A stretch of DNA of 64,000 nt from Botryllus schlosseri (lineage: Eukaryota): positions 1,428,001 to 1,492,000 of the forward strand of contig CM119373.1 of the NCBI GenBank assembly GCA_051294905.1. The letters run 5' to 3'. Shown here piece by piece: positions 9,351 through 43,354 of this stretch. Position 1 is the first letter of the stretch. Every line of letters begins with the position of its first letter. The notes beneath the pieces are model-generated. The model ran no database searches. It saw nothing but the letters and a program-made list of their open reading frames with translations, and was not told where the DNA came from. The translations under genes and the position numbers were made by a program.

Positions 9351-9600
9351 GCTCTTATGGCGGGGTGGTGAGCGGCTGGAAAACCGGGGGTGGTGAGCGG
9401 CTCCTTATACCTTATGGCGGGGTGGTGAGCGGCTATTGTGTCTTATGGCGGGGGTGGTGAGCGGCTCTTATTTCTTATGGCGGGGGTCGTGAGCGGCTGG
9501 AAAACCGGGGGTGGTGAGCGGCTTTTATGTCTTATGGCGGTGGTCGTGAGCGGCTATTGTGTCTTATGGCGGGGCGACATGCGGCTATTGTGTCTTATGG
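9351..9600 (+). repeat. GC-rich subterminal tandem repeats of element 1 (mirror at ~22536-22785)
   Basis: Repeated CTTATGGCGGGGTGGTGAGCGGCT / GGAAAACCGGGGGTGGTGAGCGG units. Confidence 0.9.
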
Positions 9601-18100: not shown

Positions 18101-21100
18101 ACCTGTAAATCTATTCGCACAGCTCGATGATGTTGATATAGTGTTACTTGAATTAATTATTACCTATTTACTCAACATAAAAATAACAATTCATGTCCTG
18201 GTAAGTAAGTTTCTTGAACTCGTGTTTGATGAAAACGAATGGTGACAAGTATGCTTTTGTGTTTGAGTGAAAAAGAATTATTTAGAGTAGTGACAGTTTG
18301 TGACCAACGAATGCAAATTGATCGTGATATCACAATATACGATTTCGTCAACATAACGACTTGGCGCAAGAGAAACACTTTCACGTTTTTTTTCAATTAA
18401 CAGATTCTCGAGACTTGTTACTTGCACGATGTACCGTTGGTGTGCAAACTATAACCACCATTTTGTATGATAGTATGTTTTAGTTGCATTGTTGTGAGGA
18501 CAACCATATGATGACTAAGCACTTTTCGTTAGCAAAGTAAATTGTTTTGCGCGTTAGATTTGTGGAACGTAAGTCGAATACATGATCTTTTGTGGAAGTA
18601 ACTGGATTACTGTGATGACATGGTAGGTATCTCAAGCAGTGACCATGGTTTTGATTTTGAAAGATGTCGCGATGTCGGTATAATGTTTTCTAAAAGTCAA
18701 ACTCGGTCGGATATCATGAATGTGTAGGACTTACGATAAACATTGTACACATACAAATTTGTTACAAGAACTATGATATTTCTGTAAGTATTATAATTGT
18801 CTGTTGGATTATTTGAATATTTAGATGCGTGACCATTCGTGTAAAAAAAGTTCTTGTGATACCAAAACAGTTTGTATAGTCTAACCAACCATTCTTTAGT
18901 TTCGTAGAGTGAGAATGTCGAGTGGAGTATTTCGTGTGATGTAAATATCTTTCATATTGGGGTCTGAAAAAGTCGCGGGGGTCATCAGTCGTATCATACA
19001 ACGTAACTATTAGTTGACACAAACAAAATATTGAATGACTGCTAACGCATTGAGTTCATAATCCAAGAGGGTGAAATTTGTTTACTGTTAAACTAACATA
19101 ACTCGTATCCTGCAAAACAGATACAATCCGGCGATGTGATGTTGGTCAATATCCATTTTGTAAAGATTGAGTAAATCCTCTTCCGTCAGGTGGGTGTGAT
19201 TCAAATCAATAGCATTTTACACATAAACATCATTTGTATTGAGGGTGATATTGTGAAGATGATGCCGCAACAACACAACCAGTAATATTTTATATCGGCT
19301 GTTTGCGCTTTAGGAATAGCGAAGTGTGCGATATTTTGGATATCTGTGTTCGACTGAAACTAGGGTTGTCCTTGGGTCTTGTGTTGGGTAAATCAGAACT
19401 ATGCCTAGAATTCAAGCACGTCCGAGTAACGTCTTTTAGTGACAGAGTATTGTGATGACATTTACTTTAGCGAATGACAACGGAAAAAATTTCGATTGCA
19501 TTGTCGGTGTATGTGTTACACAAATAATTCTAGTACACCTAACTATAGGGTACATTTGCCAAACATCGTACAAATTGTTTCTTTGTTATGGTAACGACTT
19601 TCAGCGGCTTGGTTTCATGTCGGGAATTATTATTTGAGTGTTCAAAAACAATTTCAATCAATACTACAAATGAACAACGATACAAAACACGTTTAGTGAT
19701 AGCAAGTACTTCCTTGATATTACGATTGTTGTGCACTAGACATTTCTAGCTGAATTGAATGCATCCAGCAAACATATTCCAATTTACTTTTGTAATGATC
19801 AAAGTCTTAGAGTGCAACCTCGTGATATTTTACATTTAGCACGTTCTATAGAAAGTGTGAACGGAGTTGACTATTAATCGTATACTTGGGATAATGCTTT
19901 GATATCAAAGATATATTTTCACACTGTGTAATGTTTCGATTCTCTGTTGTGAATACCACCAGTAACGACGTTGATGTTAAATCCTCACCCGTGGTTATTG
20001 TAAGTGAATCCTAAACATCGCAACAGTCGGTATGGAAATCGAACGCGTGCGTACTTTTAGATAGGTGACACTAACAAGTTTATTACATCCGTGAAATACT
20101 CTGAAACGTCGATTCGTGATTGTGTTAGCTATATTCATCTTCCATATCTGTGGACACAAAGATATCTTGACTTTGGTTACAACTCACTCGAAACGAATTG
20201 TCGCGGGCAATCTAAAAAAGCACAAGTCGAAGACGAATGGTTTGATTTCAATGAACTAAAAAAGTCCTTTTGTTTTGATGTTGGGTTTAATACAATTTGT
20301 ACGACTATAACGAATCCGATTCCAAAAGTGCTATGTTACATTTAACAAAAAGTTTGATGACTTGTATTCTGATATTGATAGATGTGAAAAGTAATATGAC
20401 TAGTTTATAAAATCCCGATCATGTTCTTTGTCATGTCTGTGTTCAACAAATATGTGATCAAGTCTTACCATTCCATATTAACTTTCGCAGTCGGTGTAAT
20501 TTGTTGAAGTAACAATACCGACGAGTTCAATAATATTCTCCATCGATGTATTCGAATAATCTGTCAGCTATACGTGGATTAAAAACTTGATGCCGTTTTG
20601 TGGTTAACTCAAGTCAGTGGTCGAGTTTGTGTTGATTTCAGGAATGATCATGACGTGTGGGCAGGGTAAATTAGTTTATGTGGTTGTAACTACGACCGTA
20701 AAGAGTTGCTGACATTCCAATAAGACGAGTTGGTGGTATATGCCTAAAACCGAACTTGATATGTTTGTTGGTTGTAGTGATTACTTGCGTAGTCTTGTCT
20801 ACTTTTCGTAAGGATACTTTTTGTTTTGGTTGGGTAAGTTACAAACGGATTGACTTGACAAGGTTTTTTGTATTTTACTCTTTTGTGTATGGGAAGATGT
20901 TGAAATGTTGAGACGTAATACTATTTCCGTTCACTCGATTGCAACAAAAAATAACATGATAGTTTGTTCAAGGTTTCGACAAATAGATTGAAATATTCCG
21001 ATTTAACTCATCGCGTCACAAGTCGATCGTGGTTGTCAAGTTAGAAATATTTACAACAGGTGCTATTTCATTGATTGATTCTATTGTGTGTAGTAAGACA

Positions 21101-23553
21101 TTAAAATATCGCGATAGTATTTGCTGAAACTCTATTTGATAAACGGAAAACTCAGTCGTGAATAGAGTTGTAATTTTCAAGGATTGTTTCAAAGTATGAT
21201 CTTGAAATGTGACTGGATCAAAGTTGGTAGTCATGTTTGTCAAAGTCCAAATATTTCATTTTGGATTATCTGGATTTACCTTTAGTACATCCCGCGAATG
21301 GATTCCGATGCGGTACTATAACATTTTTGATAATAATGACTCAAGGATTTCCAATCAACAATACTGGAATTTTTTGGTAATGCTAGAGTTGCCAAATGAT
21401 TAGTTGCGTGTTTTTGTTAAGTGTTTGATTTCAAGTTAATAAAGACAATAACTGTGTAATGCACATACTTGTGATTCTTGATTCTTGTATTGATTCTATA
21501 AGTGTGAAACAGTGGTGCGGAATGTGCGAATAATTCGATGCGGCTGAAAGTCGGCGTCAGTAATATTCGGGTTACGGTCGATTCAACAAAAACGCGTTAA
21601 GGGATTTGTCAAAGGATTAGAGTTGTACCGATTTAAAACATTCAGATACGAATCGACTTGATTTGTGTAGTGAGTTTCATTTCAAGTTGACAAACTAACA
21701 CATTGATTGAATATTTTCATGGATCTTATCACGCAACTAAAGTCAGCCACTATTCTGGAGGTGTGAAACATATAGCGATCGCGGGCGAGTGACAAATTGT
21801 TGGTTTTCGAATCACCGCCTGCGACGGTTCTGGGACAAACTAATTACCGAATATTACCTTGTGAGCGTCTGAAGCATTATCCGGTGAGTGGTCGTCGGAT
21901 TTTAAAATTATATCACACCCCTTTGAATAAGCGTTCACTTCACAAAGGATAAGGGTTGGAGCGGAAATAAGTGACAATTTGTCGCTATTCAAGTTACCGA
22001 CACTGGCGGTCTGTTATTCGTTACTTATTAAATCTTACGAGTGAAATCAAGCTCTGTGCCAAACTGCTTACGAAAATTTCACCGCGTGAGTGATCGATAT
22101 GCCTGTAACACCAAGTCACTAAAGATGGTTATGTCCGAGACATTATCTTGTGGGCGATCGCGGAGTTTTGCAAACTATTTCACACATTTTTGAAGTGTTA
22201 GTTTGTGAGCGTGGTTATTGTTGATATTCGAATTGCCGTCTACGCCGGCTCTGTGGTAATCTAATTACCCAAACATTACCTTGCAAGTGATTCCTAGACT
22301 TAGCAAACTATTTCACACCTTTTTTGCTGAAAGTACGACATGCCACCCGCAGTCTATAAACGAAAGTACGAATCATCGCCGTGCCCATAAGAATAACGAT
22401 ATATCATTGTCGTACTCGCCGTAATTTGGAATATACACATTACCTAAGGACCAATCACATGACTATTTACTTGATACATATTCAACACGAAGTACGACAT
22501 GCCAACAACGAAGCCGCGTGCGAGCTATCCCGCATCCATAAGACACAATAGCCGCATGTCGCCCCGCCATAAGACACAATAGCCGCTCACGACCACCGCC
22601 ATAAGACATAAAAGCCGCTCACCACCCCCGGTTTTCCAGCCGCTCACGACCCCCGCCATAAGAAATAAGAGCCGCTCACCACCCCCGCCATAAGACACAA
22701 TAGCCGCTCACCACCCCGCCATAAGGTATAAGGAGCCGCTCACCACCCCCGGTTTTCCAGCCGCTCACCACCCCGCCATAAGAGCCCCACGCACCTCACG
22801 ACCGATCATACTAACTACTAGTGTCGCGCTCTTTACGAAAATACAAATTAAAATGTGGTCAGGGCAATGGAACAACTCCCAAGTAGCCGTAAAACTCGAT
22901 TCATCTGAACAATTGGAGCGCAGTATGACAATGAACAAGAAAATGGCTGATTCCATCGCGCGATTTTCTGACTTTGACGGCAATTTCAGGGGGATTCCAT
23001 TTCCCTGGCCAGATTTCAATCTCCATTTTTGTAATCAGTGCGACCCTAGCTTTCGATTAAGACCAGTTATATCACATTTGAGCGTTCGAATCTCCCAGAT
23101 ATAGGAATAACAATTATGCTGCAACTCCCACCGTGAAACATCGAAATATCAATCAACTGTAACCCCACCAACAAAAATTGGCGACGTCATAGTGGCACGA
23201 AATCGACGTTCAGCACATAGCATCTGTCCTGGTCGGTATATACTCCCGTGTCACAAAGTGATGTGATGTAATAAACCCCTGGCTATTAAGATATACACTC
23301 GGTCATCGAGAATCAACATTGCATGACTAGTCGTGATACATTCTGATTCGAAGGAATGTAGACCTTCATAATAAAACGTTTGTCTCCTTTGTTAGCTACA
23401 ATTCTACGGGATTGATATGTCCGATGTAAATGCAGAAGTTTTGAAGAATGAAATTTTTTCTCCGTAGTTATTGCGATCATTCCTCAATAGATAACAATTC
23501 ACAATATGAAAATGTATTTGAATGTAACATGAATCTTGCTATTCCTTATTATA

Positions 23554-23899: not shown

Positions 23900-26800
23900 T
23901 TATTATATAGTTTCGGCTTTGTAATTCATATGCATTGCATATGCATACCAATAAATAGAGAAGAGCTTTCGCGGACTGTTTCCTATAAAGTAACAATTGA
24001 TCCTATTTCTCCACAACTAAATTCCATTGGTCCAACATTTTTATTTGTCCATATTGTTATCAGGACAATCAGTGACAATAAATTGCGTGGAGCGTGAAGA
24101 AAAAATCCCAATGTGAATGAATTTTCCTGGAAATATACTCTACTTTATGCAGATGTGCGCAGTAACGTCGAACCTAATTCGTGTTTTTGCTATCAATGAG
24201 GCAATTAAGTAGTAGGATGGGATTCGTTTGTTACCGTCCAATCACAGAAGGCCACGTCGCCTTAATTGCCACGCCTACATTGCCACATCATCCGCCCATT
24301 TATTTAGAATGTAAACACTCTCATAATATAATTTGCGTCGGACTATGCCTGGTTTATGATGTCATCACAGAGGAATTAGGCGACTGCAATGCTTTGTGAA
24401 TTTCAATACCGATTTTCCATGTGTATTTAGCAATATGTATTGAATACCTTTGCGATTTTGAGCGCTGCGACTTGATAATATCAATCCCTACGCTTCTGAT
24501 GTATGATTTTTTTTTGTGTTAAGGACCTTGGTAACATTCAGAGTCTGCAACGATTGTTTGGATATACATTATAGCAATACCCCACCAAACTATAGGCGGT
24601 TATATTACTCTATTGGCCAGAGATAACTCATCCGTCCATATTTTTAAACTTGATTTTATGTATACAAGTTACGGTCTCTGCAGCCTCAACATTTTACGAC
24701 TTATTTTCATTAGACGCAGGCAAGCGGTTCTCCAGTTCGGAGCTACGAAAACAAGTCACTTGCATGTGCGCGTTCCGAATAGTCTTGTAGAATTTTCTAA
24801 AGCCGTAACAGCTAAGTAGCATATACGCGAATCCCAAGGCGAAAATAATCGAACAATAATTTTCTAAAGTCGTAACAGCTCAGTAGCATATACGCGAATC
24901 CCAAGCGAAAATAATCGAACGAACTATAGCCGCAGGCGTGCGATTCGCGGGACTTTAATTATACAAACACTTCCGATGCCTGTACGTGAACCCCGGCGTT
25001 ATAACGATTAGATCTAATTAGCGCGTTCTGAAGCCGTAAATTTAGTCAACATCATTGAGATAACCCTGATTTAAAGATGATGATCGAGTGTGACAATAGC
25101 ACTCGTCAAGGTTATACTAACATACCCTTAAACTACTCTCTACTTCACAAAATATAAAGTTAACGATTCCTAACTCGCAGTTACGAAGCAAAAGTCGATA
25201 TTGCTTTGTGATGATTTTGATGTTGTTCCATACCGATTGGGAAGATAGCACACCTAATTTCGTAACTAACTACATAATCCCTAGTAACGTAGTAAGACGC
25301 ATAACGGAATTTACGCAAAATCGGTATTGCTCTGCGATAATTTTGATCACTATGTTTTGATAATGACTTGCTTCCAAGAAATAAATCACATTCATTATAC
25401 GTTAGATGATACTTTTCCTTGATATTCTATCATGTGTATTTAGGACTAATGCGACATCACTATGTTTACGGCAGGTCTGATTTGAACACACTAATTTTGC
25501 GTATCACACCACAAACTGCGAGAGCCTTCAAAGTTGATAAGTAAACAAGTATTTGCACTCCATCATAATACTAAAGTAGCTTTTCGCGTATTTGTACCTA
25601 ATACTAAAGTGTTTATGATTTCAAATTGCTTCAACTTCATGACATTTTCAGTATTAAACAGAAATATAGACCTAGAATACTAACTTTTATTCGTAAATAG
25701 CTACTTCCTATACCTTAATTTAATGGATTTATCTGAGATCATTCCTTTACTTAATCTCTCCAAAATGTGCATTATACAAGTACGTCACCATCGAAACCCT
25801 CTCGCTATAACTATCTGGCAGTATAATTGCATTTAAGACATTATGGCAATGTACCATGTCAAATTTTGTTACGCATTTCATGATTAAACAACTTTAAAAC
25901 CAACGTAGTTCTATACCGACATTTGCGTGAATCTGTTTTGCGGGAGCGTAGCACATACCTATGCGTAGTCAACTTTAATGGCGGAATTACAGATGCAATT
26001 AAGTTTCAACACTTTTACAACGATTCTTGCTTCCTATAACTTCCCACTCGAGGCCCTCGTTATTAGACTATGATCTCAGCCTGAGCTATGTCTTGAAGCC
26101 TACGGGACTCTGCTAATTGTTTCGATTTATTCTGCCCGTTTTAATTTAAGACAAGGAAGCCCATTTCACTCAATGTATCGATGCCTACGGTACTCTACAA
26201 AATTTCTTGAATAATTCTCCCTATGTTAATTTACGATAAGAAAGACAATTTGACTCCTGAAGTCCGAAATACTTGTTCGCTTGAGCTCAGCCGCAGCGCC
26301 TGGAGTGGAATTTTATAGTTCTTGTAAAAAGTTGTTTGTGCACAATATATGTTTAAGGTAGGTCCTACGCATTCATGATTTAGTCCGAGTTTGTATTTTA
26401 GTACTACAATTTTATCGCGGAGCGCAACAAGATAAATCGTATGAATTTGTAAACTACTTATTCATGACATAGTAATAATTCTACTTGTGTACTTTTTCAT
26501 ATTTTGCAGCAATTTTAGTAGTACTTAAATAAAATTCGGAATATAAACTAATCGAAAAATTCGGTAACCAATTTCGCATAGGCTATGCATACAAATGAGG
26601 AAAGTTACATCAACGCGTGTTAACTAATTGAATTATGTAGCTTGTAATTCATGCAAGTTTCGAAACTTCTACACTGAATCCTTTAAAGTAGATAGAATCG
26701 AAAAAACTAATCGAAAATATTCACGAAGTTTGGATGCGACATATTTGGGTTTTTTAAAATCATTCATACCCATGATTCGAAATACTTTAACTAACTTATG

Positions 26801-27379
26801 TTTTCGACATAAGATAAGCGTGAAATGTACAAATTTCTATGTTGCGCAAATACCACAAACTTTGCTTGCTTTCAGACCCGGCAACTAAATGCAAGACAGA
26901 ATTTACGCAAAAGTTGCTATTCTGAAAATTTTGTCAAGGTAATAGTTTAAAAGTTTACACTTGAGCACTACGAAATGTTCAAGTACTTTATCTTTACACG
27001 ACGTTTTTTGTAAAATGAATACCAATATTATTGAAAAAATAAAAAATAAAAAGAGCGAATAATTACATTTTATCCCGGAACGCAACAAGAAAAATCGTAT
27101 GAATTTGTAAACTAATAAACATTAATAATTCTACTTGTACACTTTTCCACACTTTATAACACTTTAAGTAGTACTTAACAGTTTCAGTTTTAAATAAAAT
27201 ACGGAATATAAACTAATCGAAAAATTCGGTTACCAATTTCGCGTAGGCAATGCATACAAATGAGGAAAGTTACATCAACGCGTGTTAACTAGTTGTATCG
27301 AGTTATCGAATGACTTTTTTTTCTTTACATCAAAATAACTAGAGTGTGTAACTACATTAAAAACGTATCTAAATGAGCT

Positions 27380-28540
27380 CCAGGTCATTGTGATTATGCA
27401 GCATACCAAATTTCATCACACATTTCATGATGGAACAACTTTAAAACTAACGCAGTTCTATAGCAACTTTTGCCTAAATCTGTTTTCGGTAGCATGTACA
27501 TATCCATAGTCAGCTTTAATAACAGAATTACCATGCTAATATGTGACTCCTCACCTTGAAACTTGGTACGTAGTTGTAGGACATTGTGATTATGCAGCAT
27601 ACCAAATTTCTTCACGCATTTCATAATGGAACAACTTTAAAACTAACGCGGCTCTACATCGACTTTTTGCGTACATCTGTTTTGCGGGAGCGTATAGCAC
27701 GTACCTATACATAGTCAACTTTAATAACGGAATTACCATGCTTAACATTGAATCCCAACTCTAAACTTGATTCGTAGTTGTAGGACATTGTGGCAATGCA
27801 CCATGCTAAATTTCATCGCACATCTAATGATGGATCACCTTTAAAACTAATGCAGTCGAATACCGACTTTTAAGCATATCTGTTTTGCGTGAACATAGCA
27901 TATACCTATGCATAGTCAATTTTAATAGCAGAATTACCGTGTTAAACATTGAATTCCCACCTTGAAAGTTGGTACGCGATTATAGGACACTATAACGATG
28001 CACCATACCAAATCCCATCACACATTTCATGATGGAACAACTTTAAAACTAACGCGGCTCTACATCGACTTTTTGCGTATATCTGTTTTGCGGGGGCGTA
28101 TAGCACGTACTCATACATAGCTAACTTTAATAACGGAATTACCATGCTTAACATTGAATCCCAACTCTAAACTTGATACGTAGTTGTAGGACATTATGGC
28201 AATGAACCATGCTAAATTTCATCACATATCTAATGATGGAACACCTTTGAAACTATCGCAGTCGAATACCGACTTTTACACATATCTGTTTTTCGTGAAC
28301 ATAGCATATACCCATACATAGTCAATTTTAATAACAGAATTAGCATGCTAAACCTTAAATTCTCACCTTGAACGTTGGTACCCAGTTGTAGGACATAATA
28401 ACAATGCACCATACCAAATTTCGTCAGGCATTTCATGATGTAACACTTTCAAAACCAACGCAGTTCTATACAGGCTTTTGGCTAAATCTGTTTTTCCGTA
28501 GCGTAGCACGTACCTATACATAGTCAACTTTAATATCAAT
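27380..28540 (+). repeat. ~203-bp satellite (alternating units, ~406-bp dimer) in element 2; mirrored at ~36330-40170 with an extra dimer
   Basis: Recurring ggacattgtg..gca..atac/atgc..aaattt units near 27382, 27580, 27783, 27986, 28189 and 28391. Confidence 0.85.
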
Positions 28541-31500
28541 ACATGTTTATCGTAAGTCCTACACAGTCATGATATCCGGCCGAGTTTGACTTTTAGAAAA
28601 CATTATACCGACATCGCGACATCTTACAAAATTGAAACCGCGGTGACTGCTTGAGAGACCTACCAGTGATATCGCGGTAATCTAGTTACTTCCACAAAAT
28701 AGTATGTATTCAACTTACTTTCCACAAATCTAACGCGCAAAACAATTTACTTTGCTAACGAAAAGTGCTGAGTCATCATATCATTATCCACCCAACAATA
28801 CACCTAAAACATACTATCGTACAAAATGGTCGCTAACCTCTTTGTGCACCAGCTGTAAATCTCACAAGCAACAAGTTTCAAGATTCCAGTTATTGAAAAA
28901 ATGTTAAAGTGTTTCTCCTGCGCCAAGTCGTTATGTTGACGAAAGCGTATATTGTAATATCATGATCGATTTGCATTCGTTGGTCACAAACTGTCACTAC
29001 TCTAAATAATTATTTTTCACTCAAACACAACAGCATACTTGTCGCCATTCGTTTGCATCAAGCACGAGTTCAATAAACTTACTTAATACGACATGAATTG
29101 GTATTTTTATGTTGTGTAAATAGGTAATAATTAATTTTAGTAACACTATACCAACATCATCGAGTTGTGCGAATAGATTTACATGTGGTGTTATGGTTTT
29201 AATCGAAGTACACTGCACGATCTAATGTAGAGTCATCTCTATTGTATAGCAACTCGGTAATCGAAATGCATGCATTAACATTTAAACAGCGATCGTGTTT
29301 CGTCACGCGAAAAATACGTTCACTACCGCGATACTCTGCACAGGGCGTGCAAATCCTTTTCACACTCGTAATAGTATACCAACGGCTACCTGCGACAACG
29401 TTTAACAATACCAACGACACTAAACATACGATACCTACCCAATCTGCAAATTGTTTCGATTTATTCTGTCCGTTTCAATTTAAGATAAGGAAGCCCATTT
29501 CACTCAATGTATCGATGCCTACGGTACTCTACAAAATTTTCTGATTAATTCTCCCTATGCTTATTTATCACAAGAAAGATGATTTGACACCTAAAGTACG
29601 AAATACTTTTACGCTTGAGCTAAGCCGCAGCGCCTGAAGTGGAATTTTACGGGGTATGTGGACTCATTTCGTAGGGCTCTATGCCATAGGAGCATACTTT
29701 ACGCTCCAATTCGATTCCCACACATTCCATATAATTACTAACAGAACCATTGAGTACCAGCCTTGACATTTTCCGTAGTACTAGATGGCATGTATACAAT
29801 TTCACGACATCCGACATTACGACGAAGACTATCAAAATATCGAAAGAAGCCCTCTATTCTTTTCTGAAATAATCAAGGTTTTATCAGGACTTCCCTTCAT
29901 ATAAACTCCAGCAGAATCACTAATAACCTCTCAAGTGTACTCAATTTACTCTAATTTGATACTCGTGTACCAAATCCCTATTTTCCGCAAGTATGATAGA
30001 GGCTATCGCTCGATACTCAACGATTCGTAATTTTGCTGGAATACAAGTACAATTAGTTTAAAGTAGTTTGAGGTTACGTTTGTATCACCTTGACAAGTGC
30101 TATTATCAAAAAATGCTTTTGCTAAACTCTTACCCTTTCACTAAACTTCTACACGGAATCTTGTAAAGTAGATAGAAAAGGAAAACTATTAACATAAGGT
30201 ATGTGAGAAGCACGCAAATTTCGATTGCATACAAATGCCACAAACTGCGCTAACTTCCAGAGTTGTTAAGTATAGAAGTACTCGTACGTCTTGAGAATAC
30301 CCAAGTAGGTTTTTTGCCTACATGTACCAAATACTCTCTAGTCCTTATGATATTGGAGTACATCAACTTCATGATAGCTACAGTATTAAACAGAAATAGA
30401 CCTAGAGTACTAACGTTTTTGTGCAGTGAGAGTTCGCAAATTATCGAAGTATTTTTGTTATTTTTATTGCGATAAGTCATTCTGCAGCGCAAAAATGCGT
30501 CGTAGGATATAGATGAAACTAGCACCACTCATCAAGACCGCTGATAACAGTACATTTCAACATTTAGTTGCAGTAAATTTCGAGTAAAGTACAAGAAGTG
30601 ATGATTTCCGAGTGAGTTAAAAAGTAAGTATTGCAGGTATAGTTTACCTGAAAACCGAATACTCTGAAATAGAAGTAGATGCAGTGTAAATAGTTAATCA
30701 CTTGATTAAGTATAGCGAAAGCAGATAAAACCTATACTTGAGTACTACAAAATACACGAGTACTTCGCTATCGACTCCCTCCACGTAATAAGTGACTACG
30801 GTTTAAGACTGCTTTTACCGATACTCGTCAGTTTCCGTTTTAGATAGAATTCGGAAACCAAATAATTTCATAAACATAAGCTAATTAAATGAATTTACTC
30901 GAATGTACTATGCCGCGCTGATAAGATTAATTATAATATACTTATCATGTTAGAGCGATTTTTCTAGCGTAGAAAATCTTTAAAATGTAGTAAGCAGGCC
31001 AAAATGAAGATATTCGTTGAGCTGAATAAACATAAAAAATACTCTAGACTACTTTATCGGTACTTTACAGTTTCAGTTTTAGATAAAATTTGTCCATTTC
31101 ACTCCTCGCTATCTAAACATGTTTAGAATATATTATTTGCGATGATACGAACCCGTAAAGTACTCAAGTAGCTTTTCGTTGGATATAGATGAAACTGACA
31201 CCACTCACCAAGACCACTGGCCCACCGACAAAAAGTACATTTCAACATTTTAGTAACAGTAAAGTCCTACTAAAGTACAAGAAGTCATGATTTCCGAGTG
31301 AGTTAAAAAGTAAGTATTGAAGGTATAGTTTGCTCGAAAACCGAAAAACTCTGAAATAGAAGTAGATGCAGTGTAAATAGTCAATCACTTCATTTAGTAT
31401 AGCGCAAGCAGGCCAAACCTATACTTGAGTACTCCAAAATATACAAGTACTCCCTCCACGTAAAAAAGCGACTAGGGTTTAGACTACTTTATCGGTACTT

Positions 31501-34485
31501 GACAGTTTCAGTTTTAGATCAAATTTGGTGAGACTTTAAATTTTGAAGTAGTTTGAGCTTACGTTTGTATCACCTTGACAAGTATCATTATCAGACATGA
31601 AAATGATACTATCACCTAATACAGAAGTTAACACACGTCAATGTGCTTCGGAATTCACGAGAAATTGCTTACTAAGAGAAGTATATTCTTGTATACACAA
31701 TAGTGGAGAGAATCTTTAAAATGTAGTAAGCAGGTCGATGGGTATTCATTGAGTTGTATAAGCATAAAAAACATTCCCGCGCGCTCCTAAACCTAACACT
31801 TCCTACCCTACCACCTTATACTAAGACGCGCGCGGGAATGTTTTTTATGCTTATACAACTCAATGAATACCCATCGACCTGCTTACTACATTTTAAAGAT
31901 TCTCTCTACTATTATGTATACAAGAATATACTTCTCTTAGTAAGCAATTTCTCGTGAATTCCGAAGCACATTGACGTGTGTTAACTTCTGTATTAGGTGA
32001 TATTATCATTTTCATGTCTGATAATGATACTTGTCAAGGTGATACAAACGTAAGCTCAAACTACTTTAAAATTTAAAGTCTCACCAAATTTGATCTAAAA
32101 CTGAAACTGTCAAGTACCGATAAAGTAGTCTAAACCCTAGTCGCTTTTTACGTGGAGGGAGTACTTGTATATTTTGGAGTACTCAAGTATAGGTTTGGCC
32201 TGCTTGCGCTATACTAAATGAAGTGATTGACTATTTACACTGCATCTACTTCTATTTCAGAGTTTTTCGGTTTTCGAGCAAACTATACCTTCAATACTTA
32301 CTTTTTAACTCACTCGGAAATCATGACTTCTTGTACTTTAGTAGGACTTTACTGTTACTAAAATGTTGAAATGTACTTTTTGTCGGTGGGCCAGTGGTCT
32401 TGGTGAGTGGTGTCAGTTTCATCTATATCCAACGAAAAGCTACTTGAGTACTTTACGGGTTCGTATCATCGCAAATAATATATTCTAAACATGTTTAGAT
32501 AGCGAGGAGTGAAATGGACAAATTTTATCTAAAACTGAAACTGTAAAGTACCGATAAAGTAGTCTAGAGTATTTTTTATGTTTATTCAGCTCAACGAATA
32601 TCTTCATATTGGCCTGCTTACTACATTTTAAAGATTTTCTACGCTAGAAAAATCGCTCTAACATGATAAGTATATTATAATTAATCTTATCAGCGCGGCA
32701 TAGTACATTCGAGTAAATTCATTTAATTAGCTTATGTTTATGAAATTATTTGGTTTCCGAATTCTATCTAAAACGGAAACTGACGAGTATCGGTAAAAGC
32801 AGTCTTAAACCGTAGTCACTTATTACGTGGAGGGAGTCGATAGCGAACTACTCGTGTATTTTGTAGTACTCAAGTATAGGTTTTATCTGCTTGCGCTATA
32901 CTTAATCAAGTGATTAACTATTTACACTGCATCTACTTCTATTTCAGAGTATTCGGTTTTCAGGTAAACTATACCTGCAATACTTACTTTTTAACTCACT
33001 CGGAAATCATCACTTCTTGTACTTTACTCGAAATTTACTGCAACTAAATGTTGAAATGTACTGTCATCAGCGGTCTTGATGAGTGGTGCTAGTTTCATCT
33101 ATATCCTTCGACGCATTTTTGCGCTGCAGAATGACTTATCGCAATAAAAATAACAAAAATACTTCGATAATTTGCGAACTCTCACTGCACAAAAACGTTA
33201 GTACTCTAGGTCTATTTCTGTTTAATACTGTAGCTATCATGAAGTTGATGTACTCCAATATCATAAGGACTAGAGAGTATTTGGTACATGTAGGCAAAAA
33301 ACCTACTTGGGTATTCTCAAGACGTACGAGTACTTCTATACTTAACAACTCTGGAAGTTAGCGCAGTTTGTGGAATTTGTATGCAATCGAAATTTGCGTG
33401 CTTCTCACATACCTTATGTTAATAGTTTTCCTTTTCTATCTACTTTACAAGATTCAGTGTAGAAGTTTAGTGAAAGTGTAAGAGTTTAGCAAAAGCATTT
33501 TTTGATAATAGCACTTGTCAAGGTGATACAAACGTAACCTCAAACTACTTTAAACTAATTGTACTTGTATTCCAGCAAAATTACGAATCGTTGAGTATCG
33601 AGCGATAGCCTCTATCATACTTGCGGAAAATAGGGATTTGGTACACGAGTATCAAATTAGAGTAAATTGAGTACACTTGAGAGGTTATTAGTGATTCTGC
33701 TGGAGTTTATATGAAGGGAAGTCCTGATAAAACCTTGATTATTTCAGAAAAGAATAGAGGGCTTCTTTCGATATTTTGATAGTCTTCGTCGTAATGTCGG
33801 ATGTCGTGAAATTGTATACATGCCATCTAGTACTACGGAAAATGTCAAGGCTGGTACTCAATGGTTCTGTTAGTAATTATATGGAATGTGTGGGAATCGA
33901 ATTGGAGCGTAAAGTATGCTCCTATGGCATAGAGCCCTACGAAATGAGTCCACATACCCCGTAAAATTCCACTCCAGGCGCTGCGGCTTAGCTCAAGCGT
34001 AAAAGTATTTCGTACTTTAGGTGTCAAATCATCTTTTTTGTGATAAATAAGCATAGGGAGAATTAATCAGAAAATTACCGTAGGCATCGATACATTGAGT
34101 GAAATGGGCTTCCTTATCTTAAATTGAAACGGACAGAATAAATCGAAACAATTTGCAGATTGGGTAGGTATCGTATGTTTAGTGTCGTTGGTATTGTTAA
34201 ACGTTGTCGCAGGTAGCCGTTGGTATACTATTACGAGTGTGAAAAGGATTTGCACGCCCTGTGCAGAGTATCGCGGTAGTGAACGTATTTTTCGCGTGAC
34301 GAAACACGATCGCTGTTTAAATGTTAATGCATGCATTTCGATTACCGAGTTGCTATACAATAGAGATGACTCTACATTAGATCGTGCAGTGTACTTCGAT
34401 TAAAACCATAACACCACATGTAAATCTATTCGCACAACTCGATGATGTTGGTATAGTGTTACTAAAATTAATTATTACCTATTTA

Positions 34486-35750
34486 CAGAGGTGGTCAAAG
34501 TAGTCAAGAAAACTACTCAAGTAGAAGTAGAAGTAGCGACGAAAAAATCTACTCAAGTACGAGTAGAAGTACTTTTTCAATAAGCCCCCTAAAACTACTT
34601 GAAGTAGAAGTAAAATTGACTGACGTTAAATCTACTTTTAAGTAAGTAAGTAGTTTTGAAAACAGTCATAATTCGTACGCATGGACTGTCAAAAGCTGCG
34701 AATTCAGCTATGCTGTAGGTGCAGAGAGCTTGATTCGTATTGATGCATTCCAGGAGGTATCAATTTTCGACAGCATAAGCATTGTTTCGCGCCATGGGAT
34801 GAAAATTATAGTATTGATATGAGAATGCAATACTAACCCTTTGTTTACTAGAAGACCCCGTTAGATATGGCACCCCACCCCATATTATAAGGCCCAAGTT
34901 CAGGCGAAGAGCAATACGTAGAAGTTGTATCGGATACGGTTTCATCACTTTTCGCGATTAGGAAATAACAAATATTGTGCATCGTAAAAGTTATATTTAG
35001 TGTATACCTTTTATTTCGGAAAATAGAGGCATTGCTACACTTGCTTTTAAGGTTCAACATGTTTGTTCTGCAGACAAAAGAACTGAAAATAATTAGAACT
35101 CAAAGTATGATACTCGCAATTGAAAGTGAAACACAAATACCACTTTTAAACAGCAGAAAATATATTTCATGTAATTTGTCCATAAAGCTTCAAAGGTGAT
35201 CTTCTGAAACAGGTGTAGCGTTAAACAGCTGGATATTCGAGATTAGCAAGACACGTAATGTGCTGCTAGATTACGATGTGATTGGTAACTGCTAGATTGC
35301 GAATCGGTAGTTTCAAACGTCATGATGGGCCATATTTACTGTGATGAAATATTTAATATGGGCGACAATGAGGTGTGAGAGGAACCAAGCAATCCGGTAC
35401 CTGAATTATATTCACTGATACTTTCATGAAAACATATTTGTCATTCCACCACTACTATGCGCGAATCACAACAAAATTATAGGATTTACTTGACTTTTAT
35501 GAAAATTGAATGTTGATACTCCGTGAAAACAGCCCCGAAATTCCTCAGGCTATCTTTCACATTAGGGGTAATAAACTACTTCTACTTGACAAACTGAAAA
35601 TAGCGAAAAGTAAGTAAGTAGATCACAAAATTTTACGAAGTAGAAGTAAAAGTAGAGAAAATCAGATCTACTTGAGTAAGTATCAGAAGTAGAGGAAAAC
35701 TACTTGAGTACTTCCAAAAAGTAGAAGTACTTCGTTACTGACCACCTCTG
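34486..35750. mobile_element. hAT (Tol2-like) MITE, in the right arm of element 2 only
   Basis: TIRs cagaggtggtca / tgaccacctctg; TSD cctattta; tactcaagta/agtagaagta subterminal repeats; empty site at 29117-29124. Confidence 0.93.
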
Positions 35751-36967
35751 CCTATTTACACAACATAAAAATACCAATTCATGTCGTAGTAAGTAAGTTT
35801 ATTGAACTCGTGCTTGATGAAAACGAATGGCGACAAGTATGCTGTTGTGTTTGAGTGAAAAATAATTATTTAGAGTAGTGACAGTTTGTGACCAACGAAT
35901 GCAAATCGATCATGATATTACAATATACGCTTTCGTCAACATAACGACTTGGCGCAGGAGAAACACTTTAACATTTTTTCAATAACTGGAATCTTGAAAC
36001 TTGTTGCTTGTGAGATTTACAGCTGGTGCACAAAGAGGTTAGCGACCATTTTGTACGATAGTATGTTTTAGGTGTATTGTTGGGTGGATAATGATATGAT
36101 GACTCAGTACTTTTCGTTAGCAAAGTAAATTGTTTTGCGCGTTAGATTTGTGGAAAGTAAGTTGAATACATACTATTTTGTGGAAGTAACTAGATTACCG
36201 CGATATCACTGGTAGGTCTCTCAAGCAGTCACCGCGGTTTCAATTTTGTAAGATGTCGCGATGTCGGTATAATGTTTTCTAAAAGTCAAACTCGGCCGGA
36301 TATCATGACTGTGTAGGACTTACGATAAACATGTATTGATATTAAAGTTGACTATGTATAGGTACGTGCTACGCTACGGAAAAACAGATTTAGCCAAAAG
36401 CCTGTATAGAACTGCGTTGGTTTTGAAAGTGTTACATCATGAAATGCCTGACGAAATTTGGTATGGTGCATTGTTATTATGTCCTACAACTGGGTACCAA
36501 CGTTCAAGGTGAGAATTTAAGGTTTAGCATGCTAATTCTGTTATTAAAATTGACTATGTATGGGTATATGCTATGTTCACGAAAAACAGATATGTGTAAA
36601 AGTCGGTATTCGACTGCGATAGTTTCAAAGGTGTTCCATCATTAGATATGTGATGAAATTTAGCATGGTTCATTGCCATAATGTCCTACAACTACGTATC
36701 AAGTTTAGAGTTGGGATTCAATGTTAAGCATGGTAATTCCGTTATTAAAGTTAGCTATGTATGAGTACGTGCTATACGCCCCCGCAAAACAGATATACGC
36801 AAAAAGTCGATGTAGAGCCGCGTTAGTTTTAAAGTTGTTCCATCATGAAATGTGTGATGGGATTTGGTATGGTGCATCGTTATAGTGTCCTATAATCGCG
36901 TACCAACTTTCAAGGTGGGAATTCAATGTTTAACACGGTAATTCTGCTATTAAAATTGACTATGCAT

Positions 36968-39225
36968 CAGACATGGGGTGATTACTTTATGAATGTAATC
37001 GATTGCGATTACGATTACTTCGGAATCACGCGATTACGATTACGATTACGATTACAGCAAAATCAGGAAGTAGTCGATTACGATTACGATTACATTGAAA
37101 AAGTAATCACGATTACTCACGATTACATTTGTTTTGCTTAGGACTATAATCTTAAATGATATATGGGAAGACAATACAAGGATTGTGATGAAAAGGCTTA
37201 ATGAGATATCAACTTTCTTCATACATCTTGCGTCATTTGCTTATTACGTCATAATATATCAATTGCCAACTTTATAGTGGATGATTTATCGCATCCAACG
37301 ATTTGCATTATTGCCAGGTCTTTACCTGCCGCACCCCAAATTCCTTAATAGAGTGGGGAGCGTGCTCAAACGGGACTCATAAGTATTTCGTAAACCAACA
37401 TAAATTATAGAGTATTTTCGAGAATTCAATTAATTCTTGTAAATGTTTTTCGAGCTTTGCGATTCAAATATTTCTAGTACAGGGGTCATCAACGCGGACC
37501 AAATGAGTCGCCCGCGGTCGCTGTAGTAGTGGTGGCTTTTGGGGTGGGCGAGGTGGGCGGTCGCCAGGGGGGGCTGGTCGAAGGGCTCCCCTATTTGGAT
37601 TATGCGCTTTTTTCAAGGATAATAACGGATAAACATGGAAATCCGTGTAAGGCAAGAATAGGATTCCGTACAGATGTGTCAATCAGCATCAAATCTCTGC
37701 ATTTGTTAGAAAAGTACCATATCCCGATAATCATCACGTCTCTGCATGTGGTAGAATTACTTAGTTTTAATGTCGTCTATCTTTGCACACATGAAAAAAT
37801 AGACATGGCCGAATCCAGCACCTGGCCAAACCTTGATAGATAGATAATAATAACAGATACGAAAGAGGGGTCTGGGGGGCGAAGCCCCCCATAAGTTACG
37901 GATAGATACTTATAGGGGCCCCGGTAAGTCTCGCTCAGCCCCCCCCCCGTTCGTATGGCCACCACTGCGCTGTAGCAATGCAATGTAATAACAATGCAAA
38001 TGTCACCCGGCGCATCCACAAATGAATAAAGCCATGACAATATGTGTGTGCGTTTCACAAAAGATATTCTTTTAGTCTGCTACGTTTGGGCGAGTATAAT
38101 ATCTTGTGATTATACAACGGACTGGAGGTCGCGAATTAACAAGATACAGTAATTATAACAACATACCCGATGCTATGAATATGAATTACGTGCCCCAGCT
38201 TTACAGGTAAATCTGACACTCGGGGCTCAGAGAGGTTATAAATGAATAGTAATATAATGCAATTACCATTATTATTGACGAAATTCACTTTTGAAAATTG
38301 ACCAACGGTTGGACAGGGGAATTGCTGTTTTGGCTGAATTGCTGATTCTAGCTACCTACAACCCACGCTAACATGTCAGGCTAAATAAGCGGATGGCTAT
38401 GGCGGCAGGTCCAAATGCTAAGTAACGAACTGTGAAATAACGATTGACGCCCGTTTCAAGTAGTTATATGAGAATAAGATATGGTTAACATAAAAATTCT
38501 GCCTTCAACTTAATACATATACAGCGAACTGATGTTACGAGAAACGGCTAAGCACGGCTCGGTTATGATATATATCAGCAGCTGTTTATTTGTAATGCTT
38601 CGTTGTGGAAACTGCAATGTCTTATTCGACGAGTACAGAATTCCGAATCTTCGTCAGGTGCACGTGCGTAAGTAGGCCTCCTGCTCGCCAAGCAGCAATG
38701 GTAAACTGCGTTTAACTAAGCATACAACCAAACATTAATACATAATAAGTTACTATTTGAAACTATAGGCAGAGTGGTGATCAATATCCTGCTGCGAGGT
38801 AGCGGCTTCTGTAGTGTATTGATAACCTGATATACACCACGGGAGGTATTCTTACAATCACACTACAATGTCCATCGCATGTCTGTTTACTATGTGTGGA
38901 TACTTGTTGCGCAATGACGAGCGGAGCTAATACTTCTGACGTAATAATGAGTCAGTGGCGTTTGAAAACAGACGTTTGTGCTATCGCTAACGTGGTATAT
39001 TATCTCATTCTTGTTCACGAATATTCAGTTTATATCATAGTCCTTGTACAAACAAAAAGTAATCGTTCTTTCACAAACTAATCGATTAGATATGGGAAGT
39101 AGTCGATTACGATTACGATTACTTCGGATTTTTTTCGAATGTAATCGATTGCGATTACGATTACTTCAAAATGCTGTAATCGTCGTAATCGATTACGATT
39201 ACTAATCGCGATTACCCCATGTCTG
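36968..39225. mobile_element. hAT MITE with (CGATTA)n subterminal repeats, in the right arm of element 2 only
   Basis: TIRs cagacatgggg / ccccatgtctg; TSD ctatgcat at 36960-36967 and 39226-39233. Confidence 0.93.
37527..37967. mobile_element. hAT MITE nested in 36968-39225
   Basis: TIRs tagtggtggc / gccaccactg; TSD cgctgtag. Confidence 0.85.
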
Positions 39226-42200
39226 CTATGCATAGGTATATGCTATGTTCACGCAAAACAGATATGCTTAAAAGTCGGTATTCGACTGCATTAGTTTTAA
39301 AGGTGATCCATCATTAGATGTGCGATGAAATTTAGCATGGTGCATTGCCACAATGTCCTACAACTACGAATCAAGTTTAGAGTTGGGATTCAATGTTAAG
39401 CATGGTAATTCCGTTATTAAAGTTGACTATGTATAGGTACGTGCTATACGCTCCCGCAAAACAGATATACGCAAAAAGTCGATGTAGAGCCGCGTTAGTT
39501 TTAAAGTTGTTCCATCATGAAATGTGTGATGGGATTTGGTATGGTGCATTGGTATAGTGTCCTATAATCGCGTACCAACTTTCAAGGTGGGAATTCAATG
39601 TTTAACACGGTAATTCTGCTATTAAAATTGACTATGCATAGGTATATGCTATGTTCACGCAAAACAGATATGCTTAAAAGTCGGTATTCGACTGCATTAG
39701 TTTTAAAGGTGATCCATCATTAGATGTGCGATGAAATTTAGCATGGTGCATTGCCACAATGTCCTACAACTACGAATCAAGTTTAGAGTTGGGATTCAAT
39801 GTTAAGCATGGTAATTCCGTTATTAAAGTTAACTATGTATAGGTACGTGCTATACGCTCCCGCAAAACAGATGTACGCAAAAAGTCGATGTAGAGCCGCG
39901 TTAGTTTTAAAGTTGTTCCATTATGAAATGCGTGAAGAAATTTGGTATGCTGAATAATCACAATGTCCTACAACTACGTACCAAGTGTCAAGGTGAGGAG
40001 TCACATATTAGCATGGTAATTCTGTTATTAAAGCTGACTATGGATATGTACATGCTACCGAAAACAGATTTAGGCAAAAGTTGCTATAGAACTGCGTTAG
40101 TTTTAAAGTTGTTCCATCATGAAATGTGTGATGAAATTTGGTAGGCTGCATAATCACAATGACCTGGAGCTCATTTAGATACGTTTTTAATGTAGTTACA
40201 CACCCTAGTTATTTTGATGTAAAGAAAAAAATCATTCGATAACTCGATACAACTAGTTAACACGCGTTGATGTAACTTTCCTCATTTGTATGCATAGCCT
40301 ACGCGAAATTGGTAACCGAATTTTTCGATTAGTTTATATTCCGTATTTTATTTAAAACTGAAACTGTTAAGTACTACTTAAAGTGTTATAAAGTGTGAAA
40401 AAGTGTACAAGTAGAATTATTATTATGTCATGAATAAGTAGTTTACAAATTCATACGATTTTTCTTGTTGCGTTCCGGGATAAAATGTAATTTTTCGCTC
40501 TTTTTATTTTTTATTTTTTCAATAATATTAGTATTCATTTTCCAAAAAACGTCGTGTAAAGATAAAGTACTTGAACATTTCGTAGTGCTCAAGTGTAAGT
40601 TTTTAAACTATTACCTTGACAAAATTTTCAGAATAGCAACTTTTGCGTAAATTCTGTCTTGCATTTAGTTGCCGGCTCTGAAAGCAAGCAAAGTTTGTGG
40701 TATTTGCGCAACATAGAAATTTGTACATTTCACGCTTATCTTATATCGAAAACATAAGTTAGTTAAAGTATTTCGAATCATGGGTATGAATGATTTTAAA
40801 AAACCCAAATATGTCGCATCCAAACTTCGTGAATATTTTCGATTAGTTTTTTCTACTTTAAAGGATTCAATGTAGAAGTTTCGAAACTTGCATGAATTAC
40901 AAGCTACATAATTCAATTAGTTAACACGCGTTGATGTAACTTTCCTCATTTGTATGCATAGCCTATGCGAAATTGGTTACCGAATTTTTCGATTAGTTTA
41001 TATTCCGAATTTTATTTAAGTACTACTAAAATTGCTGCAAAATATGAAAAAGTACACAAGTAGAATTATTACTATGTCATGAATAAGTAGTTTACAAATT
41101 CATACGATTTATCTTGTTGCGCTCCGCGATAAAATTGTAGTACTAAAATACAAACTCGGACTAAATCATGAATGCGTAGGACCTACCTTAAACATATATT
41201 GTGCACAAACAACTTTTTACAAGAACTATAAAATTCCACTCCAGGCGCTGCGGCTGAGCTCAAGCGAACAAGTATTTCGGACTTCAGGAGTCAAATTGTC
41301 TTTCTTATCGTAAATTAACATAGGGAGAATTATTCAAGAAATTTTGTAGAGTACCGTAGGCATCGATACATTGAGTGAAATGGGCTTCCTTGTCTTAAAT
41401 TAAAACGGGCAGAATAAATCGAAACAATTAGCAGAGTCCCGTAGGCTTCAAGACATAGCTCAGGCTGAGATCATAGTCTAATAACGAGGGCCTCGAGTGG
41501 GAAGTTATAGGAAGCAAGAATCGTTGTAAAAGTGTTGAAACTTAATTGCATCTGTAATTCCGCCATTAAAGTTGACTACGCATAGGTATGTGCTACGCTC
41601 CCGCAAAACAGATTCACGCAAATGTCGGTATAGAACTACGTTGGTTTTAAAGTTGTTTAATCATGAAATGCGTAACAAAATTTGACATGGTACATTGCCA
41701 TAATGTCTTAAATGCAATTATACTGCCAGATAGTTATAGCGAGAGGGTTTCGATGGTGACGTACTTGTATAATGCACATTTTGGAGAGATTAAGTAAAGG
41801 AATGATCTCAGATAAATCCATTAAATTAAGGTATAGGAAGTAGCTATTTACGAATAAAAGTTAGTATTCTAGGTCTATATTTCTGTTTAATACTGAAAAT
41901 GTCATGAAGTTGAAGCAATTTGAAATCATAAACACTTTAGTATTAGGTACATATACGCGAAAAGCTACTTTAGTATTATGATGGAGTGCAAATACTTGTT
42001 TACTTATCAACTTTGAAGGCTTGCGCAGTTTGTGGTGTGATACGCAAAATTAGTGTGTTCAAATCAGACCTGCCGTAAACATAGTGATGTCGCATTAGTC
42101 CTAAATACACATGATAGAATATCAAGGAAAAGTATCATCTAACGTATAATGAATGTGATTTATTTCTCGGAAGCAAGTCATTATCAAAACATAGTGATCA

Positions 42201-43354
42201 AAATTATCGCAGAGCAATACCGATTTTGCGTAAATTCCGTTATGCGTCTTACTACGTTACTGGGGATTATGTAGTTAGTTACGAAATTAGGTGTGCTATC
42301 TTCCCAATCGGTATGGAACAACATCAAAATCATCACAAAGCAATATCGACTTTTGCTTCGTAACTGCGAGTTAGGAATCGTTAACTTTATATTTTGTGAA
42401 GTAGAGAGTAGTTTAAGGGTATGTTAGTATAACCTTGACGAGTGCTATTGTCACACTCGATCATCATCTTTAAATCAGGGTTATCTCAATGATGTTGACT
42501 AAATTTACGGCTTCAGAACGCGCTAATTAGATCTAATCGTTATAACGCCGGGGTTCACGTACAGGCATCGGAAGTGTTTCTATAATTAAAGTCCCGCGAA
42601 TCGCACGCCTGCGGCTATAGTTCGTTCGATTATTTTCGCTTGGGATTCGCGTATATGCTACTGAGCTGTTACGACTTTAGAAAATTATTGTTCGATTATT
42701 TTCGCCTTGGGATTCGCGTATATGCTACTTAGCTGTTACGGCTTTAGAAAATTCTACAAGACTATTCGGAACGCGCACATGCAAGTGACTTGTTTTCGTA
42801 GCTCCGAACTGGAGAATCGCTTGCCTGCGTCCAATGAAAATAAGTCGTAAAATGTTGAGGCTGCAGAGACCGTAACTTGTATACATAAAATCAAGTTTAA
42901 AAATATGGACGGATGAGTTATCTCTGGCCAATAGAGTAATATAACCGCCTATAGTTTGGTGGGGTATTGCTATAATGTATATCCAAACAATCGTTGCAGA
43001 CTCTGAATGTTACCAAGGTCCTTAACACAAAAAAAAAATCATACATCAGAAGCGTAGGGATTGATATTATCAAGTCGCAGCGCTCAAAATCGCAAAGGTA
43101 TTCAATACATATTGCTAAATACACATGGAAAATCGGTATTGAAATTCACAAAGCATTGCAGTCGCCTAATTCCTCTGTGATGACATCATAAACCAGGCAT
43201 AGTCCGACGCAAATTATATTATGAGAGTGTTTACATTCTAAATAAATGGGCGGATGATGTGGCAATGTAGGCGTGGCAATTAAGGCGACGTGGCCTTCTG
43301 TGATTGGACGGTAACAAACGAATCCCATCCGACTACTCAATTATTCTTTCACAG

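Follow-up and report, generated by a model that had tools for sequence, protein, structure and literature searches.

How does a mobile element come to consist of one 7.6-kb sequence present twice in opposite orientation, and did that palindrome exist before the element entered the chromosome? The question is raised by a 64 000-nt stretch of the Botryllus schlosseri genome (assembly GCA_051294905.1, contig CM119373.1, positions 1 428 001 to 1 492 000; hereafter the window), which contains two palindromic insertions, element 1 and element 2. The latter, at 24208..43337, is the subject of this analysis. Our overall reading, which we consider probable, is that element 2, a complete palindrome without genes, is a non-autonomous derivative of co-resident Polinton (Maverick, adintovirus-like) elements, belonging to a set of defective 'snap-back' genomes moved in trans.

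The initial annotation of the window had described element 2 as a giant palindrome with ~7.6-kb arms and a 43-nt loop at 31785–31827, flanked by its own CAATTA duplication and ~15.2 kb long without later insertions. An inverted-repeat scan and an alignment of the arms bore out this architecture, the duplication was found when both ends were read, and the length computed without two hAT-like inserts and an extra 414-bp unit was ~15.19 kb. The parts of the element, in window positions, are as follows.

24208..43337: element 2 as a whole, a single inserted element with AGTAGT ends and a perfect 6-bp duplication.
24202..24207, no strand: left target-site duplication CAATTA, the identical hexamer adjoining both element ends.
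43338..43343, no strand: right target-site duplication CAATTA, adjoining the right end.
24208..24300, forward strand: left terminus, with the AGTAGT trinucleotide reiteration, a CCAATCA box and 93 bp of homology to a Polinton repeat.
43245..43337, reverse strand: right terminus, the mirror of 24208–24300, with C rather than A at element position 7.
24208..31784, forward strand: left arm, 7577 bp, non-coding, defined by the inverted-repeat scan and the arm alignment.
~27382–28535: internal repeat units of ~400 bp in the left arm.
31785..31827, forward strand: asymmetric 43-nt loop at the palindrome centre, apparently ~7 decayed telomere-type repeats, C-rich (CCCTAA-like) on the forward strand.
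31828..43337, reverse strand: right arm, 11 510 bp, which repeats the left arm in mirror orientation and also holds three later additions.

The left end reads AGTAGTAGGATGGG... and the right end, as its reverse complement, AGTAGTCGGATGGG... The scan gave a chain of complementary blocks that starts at 24203/43342 and closes in to 31784/31828, where 43 nt separate the two arms. In the arm alignment, L24208–28321 pairs with R43337–39226, L27908–29124 with R36967–35751 (3 mismatches in 1217) and L29115–31784 with R34487–31828 (14 mismatches in 2670). Once the paralogous 414-bp unit is removed, the two arms differ at 42 of ~7587 positions, and 7.6 kb at ~99.5% complementarity excludes a chance origin of the palindrome. 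When the left arm was compared with the reverse-complemented right arm, the right was the longer by 3.9 kb. The loop itself is non-self-complementary and is flanked by a GC-rich stem end (CCCGCGCGC / GCGCGCGGG). Coding capacity is minimal, with a single ATG open reading frame of at least 80 aa in the whole of element 2. Its stop-to-stop frames of 60 aa or more, 19 in number, held no Pfam family above cut-off, so that neither the polymerase nor the rve integrase, the defining genes of an autonomous Polinton, was found in these frames.

Whether this architecture is peculiar to one locus was examined in a genome search (495 Mb, 219 contigs; G000:Cn are the contig labels of this genome, and L0nn are stretches fetched from it). 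A terminal probe of 593 bp, for which 40 of 968 candidates were scored, gave 74 matches, and many of these matches lay in +/− pairs 13–19 kb apart. A 1013-bp centre probe identified at least 40 loci, and each of the 40 that were scored (from 996 candidates) gave coincident matches on the two strands, with 92–100% identity, and is thus palindromic at that point. The 43-nt loop was 97.6–100% identical in the 12 centre loci read (12/12); the loops of subfamilies c7 and c7b are homologous to it but diverged. The centre is therefore not unique to this locus. It had been laid down beforehand that copies with these ends which were not palindromic would speak against the proposal, and each of the five further copies fetched whole proved palindromic. 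These five are listed here with their lengths, centres and arm mismatches.

Copy c7: 15 146 bp; same centre as element 2, with a 48-nt loop; 2 arm mismatches in 7549; no later inserts.
Copy c1: 16 958 bp; same centre, with a 43-nt loop; 12 arm mismatches in 7744; one later insert of 1421 bp.
Copy c7b: 17 513 bp; same centre, with a 44-nt loop; 21 arm mismatches in 7593; two later inserts, ~15.2 kb without them.
Copy c2: 13 237 bp; asymmetric centre of 1175 nt; 15 arm mismatches in 6032; no later inserts.
Element 1: 13 503 bp; asymmetric centre of 875 nt; 26 arm mismatches in 6315; no later inserts.

The insertion sites were equally informative. Perfect 6-bp duplications, all different, were present in seven of the seven palindromic copies for which both ends were read (CAATTA, TAGGGG, GGTGTC, CACAAC, CACAGC, TAAGTC and AGTGTC). 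Stripped of later inserts, the four copies with the element 2 type of centre all measure 15.15–15.54 kb. The centre of element 1 is likewise multi-copy, with all 40 scored loci matching (at least 40). The recurrence of the element 2 centre, the five palindromic copies and the seven duplications uphold the suggestion of a recurrent class rather than a one-off rearrangement. A shared centre combined with a separate duplication for each copy implies that the palindrome formed before insertion and that the family spread as a palindrome. The proposal that an already palindromic molecule had integrated is thus supported, and we consider it nearly certain that element 2 inserted as one such unit.

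The converse order of events would be an inverted duplication in situ after an ordinary insertion, or the palindrome might be an assembly artefact derived from a chimeric fold-back read. Long-read assemblies can produce false palindromes, and no record spans the 24207/24208 junction with at least 31 letters on each side, the best, from run X1, having 28 (the contigs are short). Against this, the same centre and loop recur at at least 40 loci on many contigs, with flanks and duplications that differ copy by copy. Element 2 also carries three one-arm additions and 42 arm differences, whereas an artefact would mirror perfectly. Finally, DNA runs from three independent studies contain the family in abundance, and their contigs cover it at high word depth. 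Both forms of this explanation are accordingly highly improbable.

Some centre loci depart from the simple arrangement. Tandem pairs of complete centres, each made up of an arm, a loop and an arm, occur at G000:C7:16867524-16877574 and at G000:C5:22921331-22931087, with a spacing of 5.4–5.6 kb; the arms of the two C7 units are identical (distance 0.00%). These tandem centres could reflect recent tandem duplication, concatemer-like insertion or an assembly issue. In L040 (G000:C11:10677801-10678312), part of the loop and stem occurs again ~750 bp away from that copy's main centre. Loci that at first appeared to have different centres, with 964-bp arms ~100 bp apart, were rejected as such; they are mirrored internal-deletion copies that keep the same loop.

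The next question is what kind of element supplied the ends. The initial annotation had inferred a Polinton from AG ends and the 6-bp duplication only, and this identity is now backed by complete co-resident Polintons that have AGTAGT ends and a homologous terminal repeat. PMC10748475 gives Polintons as 13–25 kb long, with terminal inverted repeats of 100–1500 bp and duplications of 5–8 bp, and PMC5499653 defines them by an encoded protein-primed polymerase and retrovirus-like integrase. One such element was reached through a weak A32-ATPase match in the genome. This C11 Polinton (G000:C11:2511867-2529739) is 17 873 bp long. It has AGTAGT ends, terminal repeats of 242 bp and CAAAAC as its duplication, and its genes include an A32-type ATPase, an rve integrase (E = 2e-13) with a chromodomain and a 1310-aa polymerase. 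The 1310-aa protein had 454 homologues at E ≤ 0.001, with PF03175 in most of the 120 listed, and 19 of its 30 atlas matches were PF03175 clusters; its translation also holds stretches that we take to be conserved family-B polymerase motifs. Since polymerase and integrase, the published definition, are both present, the C11 element is a Polinton.

The C11 Polinton (stretches L007, L055 and L056) is nested inside another palindromic family member. It also encodes a ubiquitin-conjugating enzyme (PF00179, E = 2e-48) and, near its right end, a Bcl-2 family gene (E = 9e-20). PMC8502044 describes adintoviruses that carry homologues of Bcl2.

Protein-primed polymerase loci number at least 35 in the genome; all 35 that were scored matched (355 candidates), and most have open frames of ~1290–1310 aa. 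They fall into four identity classes (98–100, 91, 65–67 and 61%). A Polinton of the 61% class on C4 (G000:C4:15223819-15241408, 17 590 bp) carries a terminal repeat of 131 bp that begins with AGTAGT. Element 2 matches this repeat from base 1 over its first 93 bp, with 87.4% identity over 95 columns (E = 1e-26). Copy c1 matches the same repeat at 90–91% over 129–150 bp and c7 at 90% over 99 bp; c7 also has a longer terminal match of 294 bp at 76.5%. The ends of c2 resemble those of the C11 Polinton. Among the 12 termini read, 11 begin AGTAGT, including those of both Polintons, and one begins AGTAGA.

Two further features are common to palindromes and Polintons. A CCAATCA box (CCAATCC in two) stands at positions 31–38 in all termini printed that far, both autonomous Polintons included, while the bases between AGTAGT and the box vary among termini. 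In element 2 the box occupies element positions 31–37 (window 24238–24244). It could be a candidate protein-binding site of the replication origin or of the integrase. Copy c2 (L047:4973-5446, G000:C2; mirror in L048) contains, once per arm, an open frame of 158 aa for a Bcl-2 family protein (Pfam E = 3.5e-15), which is 80% identical in DNA to the Bcl-2 gene of the C11 Polinton. Its presence in both arms means that some palindromic derivatives keep a gene in two copies.

Long inverted repeats with little or no coding capacity also bring to mind foldback-type or other cut-and-paste transposons unrelated to Polintons, in which case the AG ends and the 6-bp duplication would have arisen by chance. 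Animal foldback transposons are known, with long inverted repeats made of subrepeats, 7–9-bp duplications and a P- or MULE-type transposase. Element 2 is like them in its very long inverted repeats, its scant coding and its internal repeat units, and the Pfam search of its 19 frames gave no remnant of a Polinton gene. It is unlike them in having a 6-bp duplication in every copy (7/7), ends that are Polinton repeats and arms that meet at a single conserved loop. The homology of its end, from the first base on, with the repeat of a Polinton that encodes a polymerase, the AGTAGT start of nearly all termini, the box at positions 31–38 and the Polinton Bcl-2 gene in the related palindrome c2 all speak against coincidence, and leave this explanation very improbable.

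Non-autonomous Polintons are already known. Element 2 resembles them in having ends homologous with the termini of autonomous Polintons in the same genome, a 6-bp duplication, no genes and many copies. Unlike them, its inverted repeat is total, with 7.6-kb arms that meet at a 43-nt loop, and its interior is not that of a deleted Polinton. Homologous termini, a 6-bp duplication and many unrelated insertion sites are what a non-autonomous Polinton derivative is expected to have, and element 2 has all three. Judged by its sequence, it is a non-autonomous element bearing Polinton ends and not a deleted Polinton. That it derives from Polintons and is mobilised by them in trans is very likely, given the common ends and the length of the duplication.

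If the family spreads as a palindrome, how do its two arms stay alike? Whole-arm divergence inside a copy was 0.03–0.55%, compared with 1–5% or more between copies. In nine intact centre loci (1.9 kb per arm; L037, L040 and L042, each with one arm interrupted less than 1.9 kb from the loop, were excluded), arm-to-arm divergence inside a copy was 0.05–0.63%. For seven of these loci the closest relative of an arm was its own partner arm; for the other two it was a tandem duplicate. Over the inner 1300 bp, the within-copy distances were 0.69, 0.38 and 0.08%, against 1.15–1.46% between element 2 and c1 and 4.4–4.7% between c7 and either of them. Copy c7b was left out of this comparison, as its homology to element 2 extends only ~260 bp per side and one arm has an insertion.

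Rearrangements follow the same pattern. The presence or absence of modules was mirrored in both arms wherever it was seen (element 2, c1, c7, c2 and c7b), and an internal deletion of ~1.2 kb was found in both arms of at least three loci, with the same loop retained. Insertions acquired after integration were confined to one arm. Plain duplex inheritance would give arm-specific differences common to descendants, and none was seen in the nine loop-oriented loci; thus either one arm determines the other or there is efficient gene conversion of point differences only. We prefer the former, in which each cycle would include a one-arm (hairpin) stage, to chromosomal gene conversion, whilst regarding the case for it as evenly balanced.

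Under the latter, element 2 would be a palindromic Polinton derivative without a hairpin stage, which moves and is copied as double-stranded DNA and whose arms are kept alike by gene conversion in the chromosome. Gene conversion between inverted repeats keeps large sex-chromosome palindromes alike, and arm identity by itself cannot separate the two models. The element 2 data are also accommodating, as its own arm, at 0.63%, is barely a closer relative than the nearest other copy, at 0.79%. The persistence of one-arm insertions would fit as well, in that homogenising does not erase large differences in place. However, kilobase differences were mirrored every time they were seen, yet insertions of 1.3–2.7 kb on the same chromosome were left unconverted. 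In addition, the mismatches of element 2 are spread fairly evenly over the outer, middle and inner pairings (25 in ~3700, 3 in 1217 and 14 in 2670), with no converted patches. We therefore regard conversion without a hairpin stage as unlikely, although it is by no means negligible.

The loop offers a hint of how the palindrome may have begun. Its alignment score against (CCCTAA)n was reached by 1 of 2000 composition-matched shuffles for element 2, by 0 of 2000 for c7 and by 4 of 2000 for c7b, and the alignment of these three diverged loops to (CCCTAA)n spans nearly the full loop length. Among 12 792 overlapping 43-nt windows of the whole 64 kb, two scored at least 17 against (CCCTAA)n, and both lie at the loop. 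(TTAGGG)n was present at two of the six contig ends read, which identifies it as the telomere repeat of the host itself. The ends in question are those of C7 and C1; the C11 end consists of GACTT-type and 22-bp satellite repeats (L066, L067 and L068). As far as alignment can tell, element 2 has as its loop a stretch of the host telomere repeat that has since decayed. Arm complementarity starts exactly at the first non-telomeric base, as expected of a fold-back. A founder healed by telomere addition is conceivable on this evidence, though we hold it somewhat less likely to be right than wrong.

These observations can be arranged into a mechanism. The founder would have been a linear, one-ended piece of Polinton-derived DNA, the broken end of which was capped with ~7 telomere repeats. 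The 3′ strand of the capped end would then fold back and be extended along its own arm, and replication of the hairpin-capped half-molecule would yield an inverted dimer that carries the same functional Polinton end on both sides, each a substrate for the integrase. The Polinton integrase would move copies in trans, giving the 6-bp duplication, and copying would probably also be performed by the protein-primed polymerase of the Polintons. AGTAGT is a trinucleotide reiteration akin to that of the adenovirus end, for which PMC5175343 describes a 3′-GTAGTA reiteration and jumping-back; it would serve in jumping-back after protein priming.

During strand-displacement replication, the displaced strand of a palindrome would snap into a full hairpin, with the stem end restoring the origin. 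Mismatch correction or re-copying in this hairpin would homogenise the arms and mirror rearrangements, so that new insertions start with identical arms. The stripped lengths of 15.15–15.54 kb, compared with 17.6–17.9 kb for the presumed helpers, suggest a lower size limit for packaging, and doubling a 7.6-kb fragment might be the solution to it. The full scheme, in which an animal Polinton virus has these elements as its integrated 'snap-back' satellites, with a telomere-capped founder, single-stranded full-hairpin propagation, one arm per cycle and size-selected packaging, is offered tentatively.

Several results weigh against the Polinton-derived, hairpin-propagated reading. The arms of element 2 have no DNA similarity to the two Polintons beyond the first 93–150 bp (for C4, ~6 kb of the interior was compared), and the C4 Polinton copy lacks a perfect duplication. 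Genome searches with the Pfam families PF03175 and PF00770 were negative, and a PDB sequence search with the polymerase gave chance zinc-finger matches only. The PF03175 result is a false negative, since the true polymerase also misses Pfam at E ≤ 0.01; as the family misses at least 35 polymerase loci, Pfam-based screens would score this genome as free of Polintons. The short contigs of the DNA runs held no extrachromosomal, hairpin or protein-linked form, a result that is uninformative either way. With regard to the arms, besides the thin margin of element 2 given above, ordinary gene conversion between chromosomal arms could keep them alike. With regard to the loop, the exact CCCTAA hexamer is absent from element 2 and a telomeric origin draws on alignment score. 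The long centres of element 1 (875 nt) and c2 (1175 nt) have no telomere-like tract, which limits the idea of a telomeric founder to the element 2 type of centre.

Element 1, the neighbour of element 2 in the window, has the following description.

9317..22819, no strand: element 1, palindromic, with AGTAGT ends, 6314-bp arms, an 875-nt asymmetric centre and the 6-bp duplication AGTGTC.

Reading of the termini agreed with the earlier statement that the ends of the two elements differ beyond AGTAGT. Their treatment as separate families holds in part: ends beyond AGTAGT and centres are different, but internal stretches of 165–543 bp are related, with 86–94% identity (scan pairs I10, I16, I17, I22 and I23).

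The three later additions are found in the right arm of element 2 only.

34486..35750, no strand: later insertion 1, 1265 bp, with a 12-bp terminal inverted repeat CAGAGGTGGTCA.
36968..39225, no strand: later insertion 2, 2258 bp, with 12-bp inverted ends (terminal inverted repeat CAGACATGGGGT).
39226..39639, reverse strand: extra 414-bp repeat unit, with 21 differences from the left-arm unit.

Insertion 1 has an 8-bp duplication, CCTATTTA, at 34478–34485 and 35751–35758, and insertion 2 is flanked by the 8-bp duplication CTATGCAT. From this signature of inverted ends and 8-bp duplications alone, both are presumably hAT-like. The true partner of the left-arm 414-bp unit is 36554–36967, with 0 differences. 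The extra unit (39226–39639), beside the second hAT-like insert, is 5% away from its neighbour unit. Because copy c1 has the left-arm arrangement in both arms, the extra unit of element 2 is a gain. Insertion 2 and this unit may have been copied in together from another family member by ectopic conversion.

In the flanking DNA, no paralogous empty site was found, the 308 bp to the left of the insertion being single-copy (a genome search returned itself and one weak 84-bp match). Window positions 23500–24067, ~140–700 bp to the left of element 2, are a high-copy repeat in all DNA runs, with an RNA read depth of ~8–19, the top of the stretch compared. Over the element 2 arm, the depth in one bulk RNA run was 0–2.4 on both strands.

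What, then, does element 2 most resemble? Incomplete particles of adenovirus contain snap-back defective genomes with large inverted repeats, and Kikuchi et al. (1985) reportedly described a 'hairpin plasmid' that was a deletion derivative of the yeast linear plasmid pGKL1. Like these genomes, element 2 has one end twice, in inverted orientation, joined at a turn-around point. It is also gene-poor, would be helper-dependent, has a terminal reiteration suited to protein priming and is near its helpers in length. Snap-back genomes are extrachromosomal and short-lived, whereas the element 2 family is integrated and heritable, with dozens of copies diversified into subfamilies. A further difference is that the arm of element 2 is not a contiguous copy of a helper end, ~93–150 bp of helper sequence being retained.

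A second comparison is with palindromes formed by fold-back priming. The Tetrahymena rDNA palindrome is a product of fold-back priming or template switching. Like this and hairpin-capped amplification products, element 2 is a very large palindrome whose centre is short and asymmetric, as the scar left by a hairpin loop is expected to be. Unlike them, its loop appears to be a telomere-type tract and the product is transposable, with ends predicted to be integrase-competent. Origin-dependent inverted-repeat amplification through hairpin-capped linear DNA is treated in PMC10766183 and PMC4689423.

Total palindromes with Polinton ends were not reported in the full-text literature searched, although papers outside it and supplements could hold such a report. 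What we take to be new is a family of palindromic defective Polintons, and neither the concerted evolution of its arms nor the telomere-like loop had been foreseen by the initial annotation.

Protein priming and strand displacement have been inferred for Polintons from their polymerase and, to our knowledge, the mode of their replication has had no experimental demonstration so far. Concerted arms and mirrored rearrangements are the pattern expected of a hairpin replication intermediate, which makes this intermediate testable in a genome with many apparently intact helpers. If the reading is correct, the arms, the mirrored rearrangements, the AGTAGT ends and the telomeric loop would be the first genomic footprints of Polinton replication, and palindromic defective Polintons would constitute a new class of mobile element. 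The family shows a route by which a one-ended linear element may regain two functional ends, and a telomere-type tract at the turn-around point would link end-healing to the birth of a transposon. For the host, near-perfect inverted repeats of 15 kb at dozens of sites are potential fragile sites and potential sources of long double-stranded RNA, and such palindromes readily pass for assembly errors or are masked as if they were two separate repeats.

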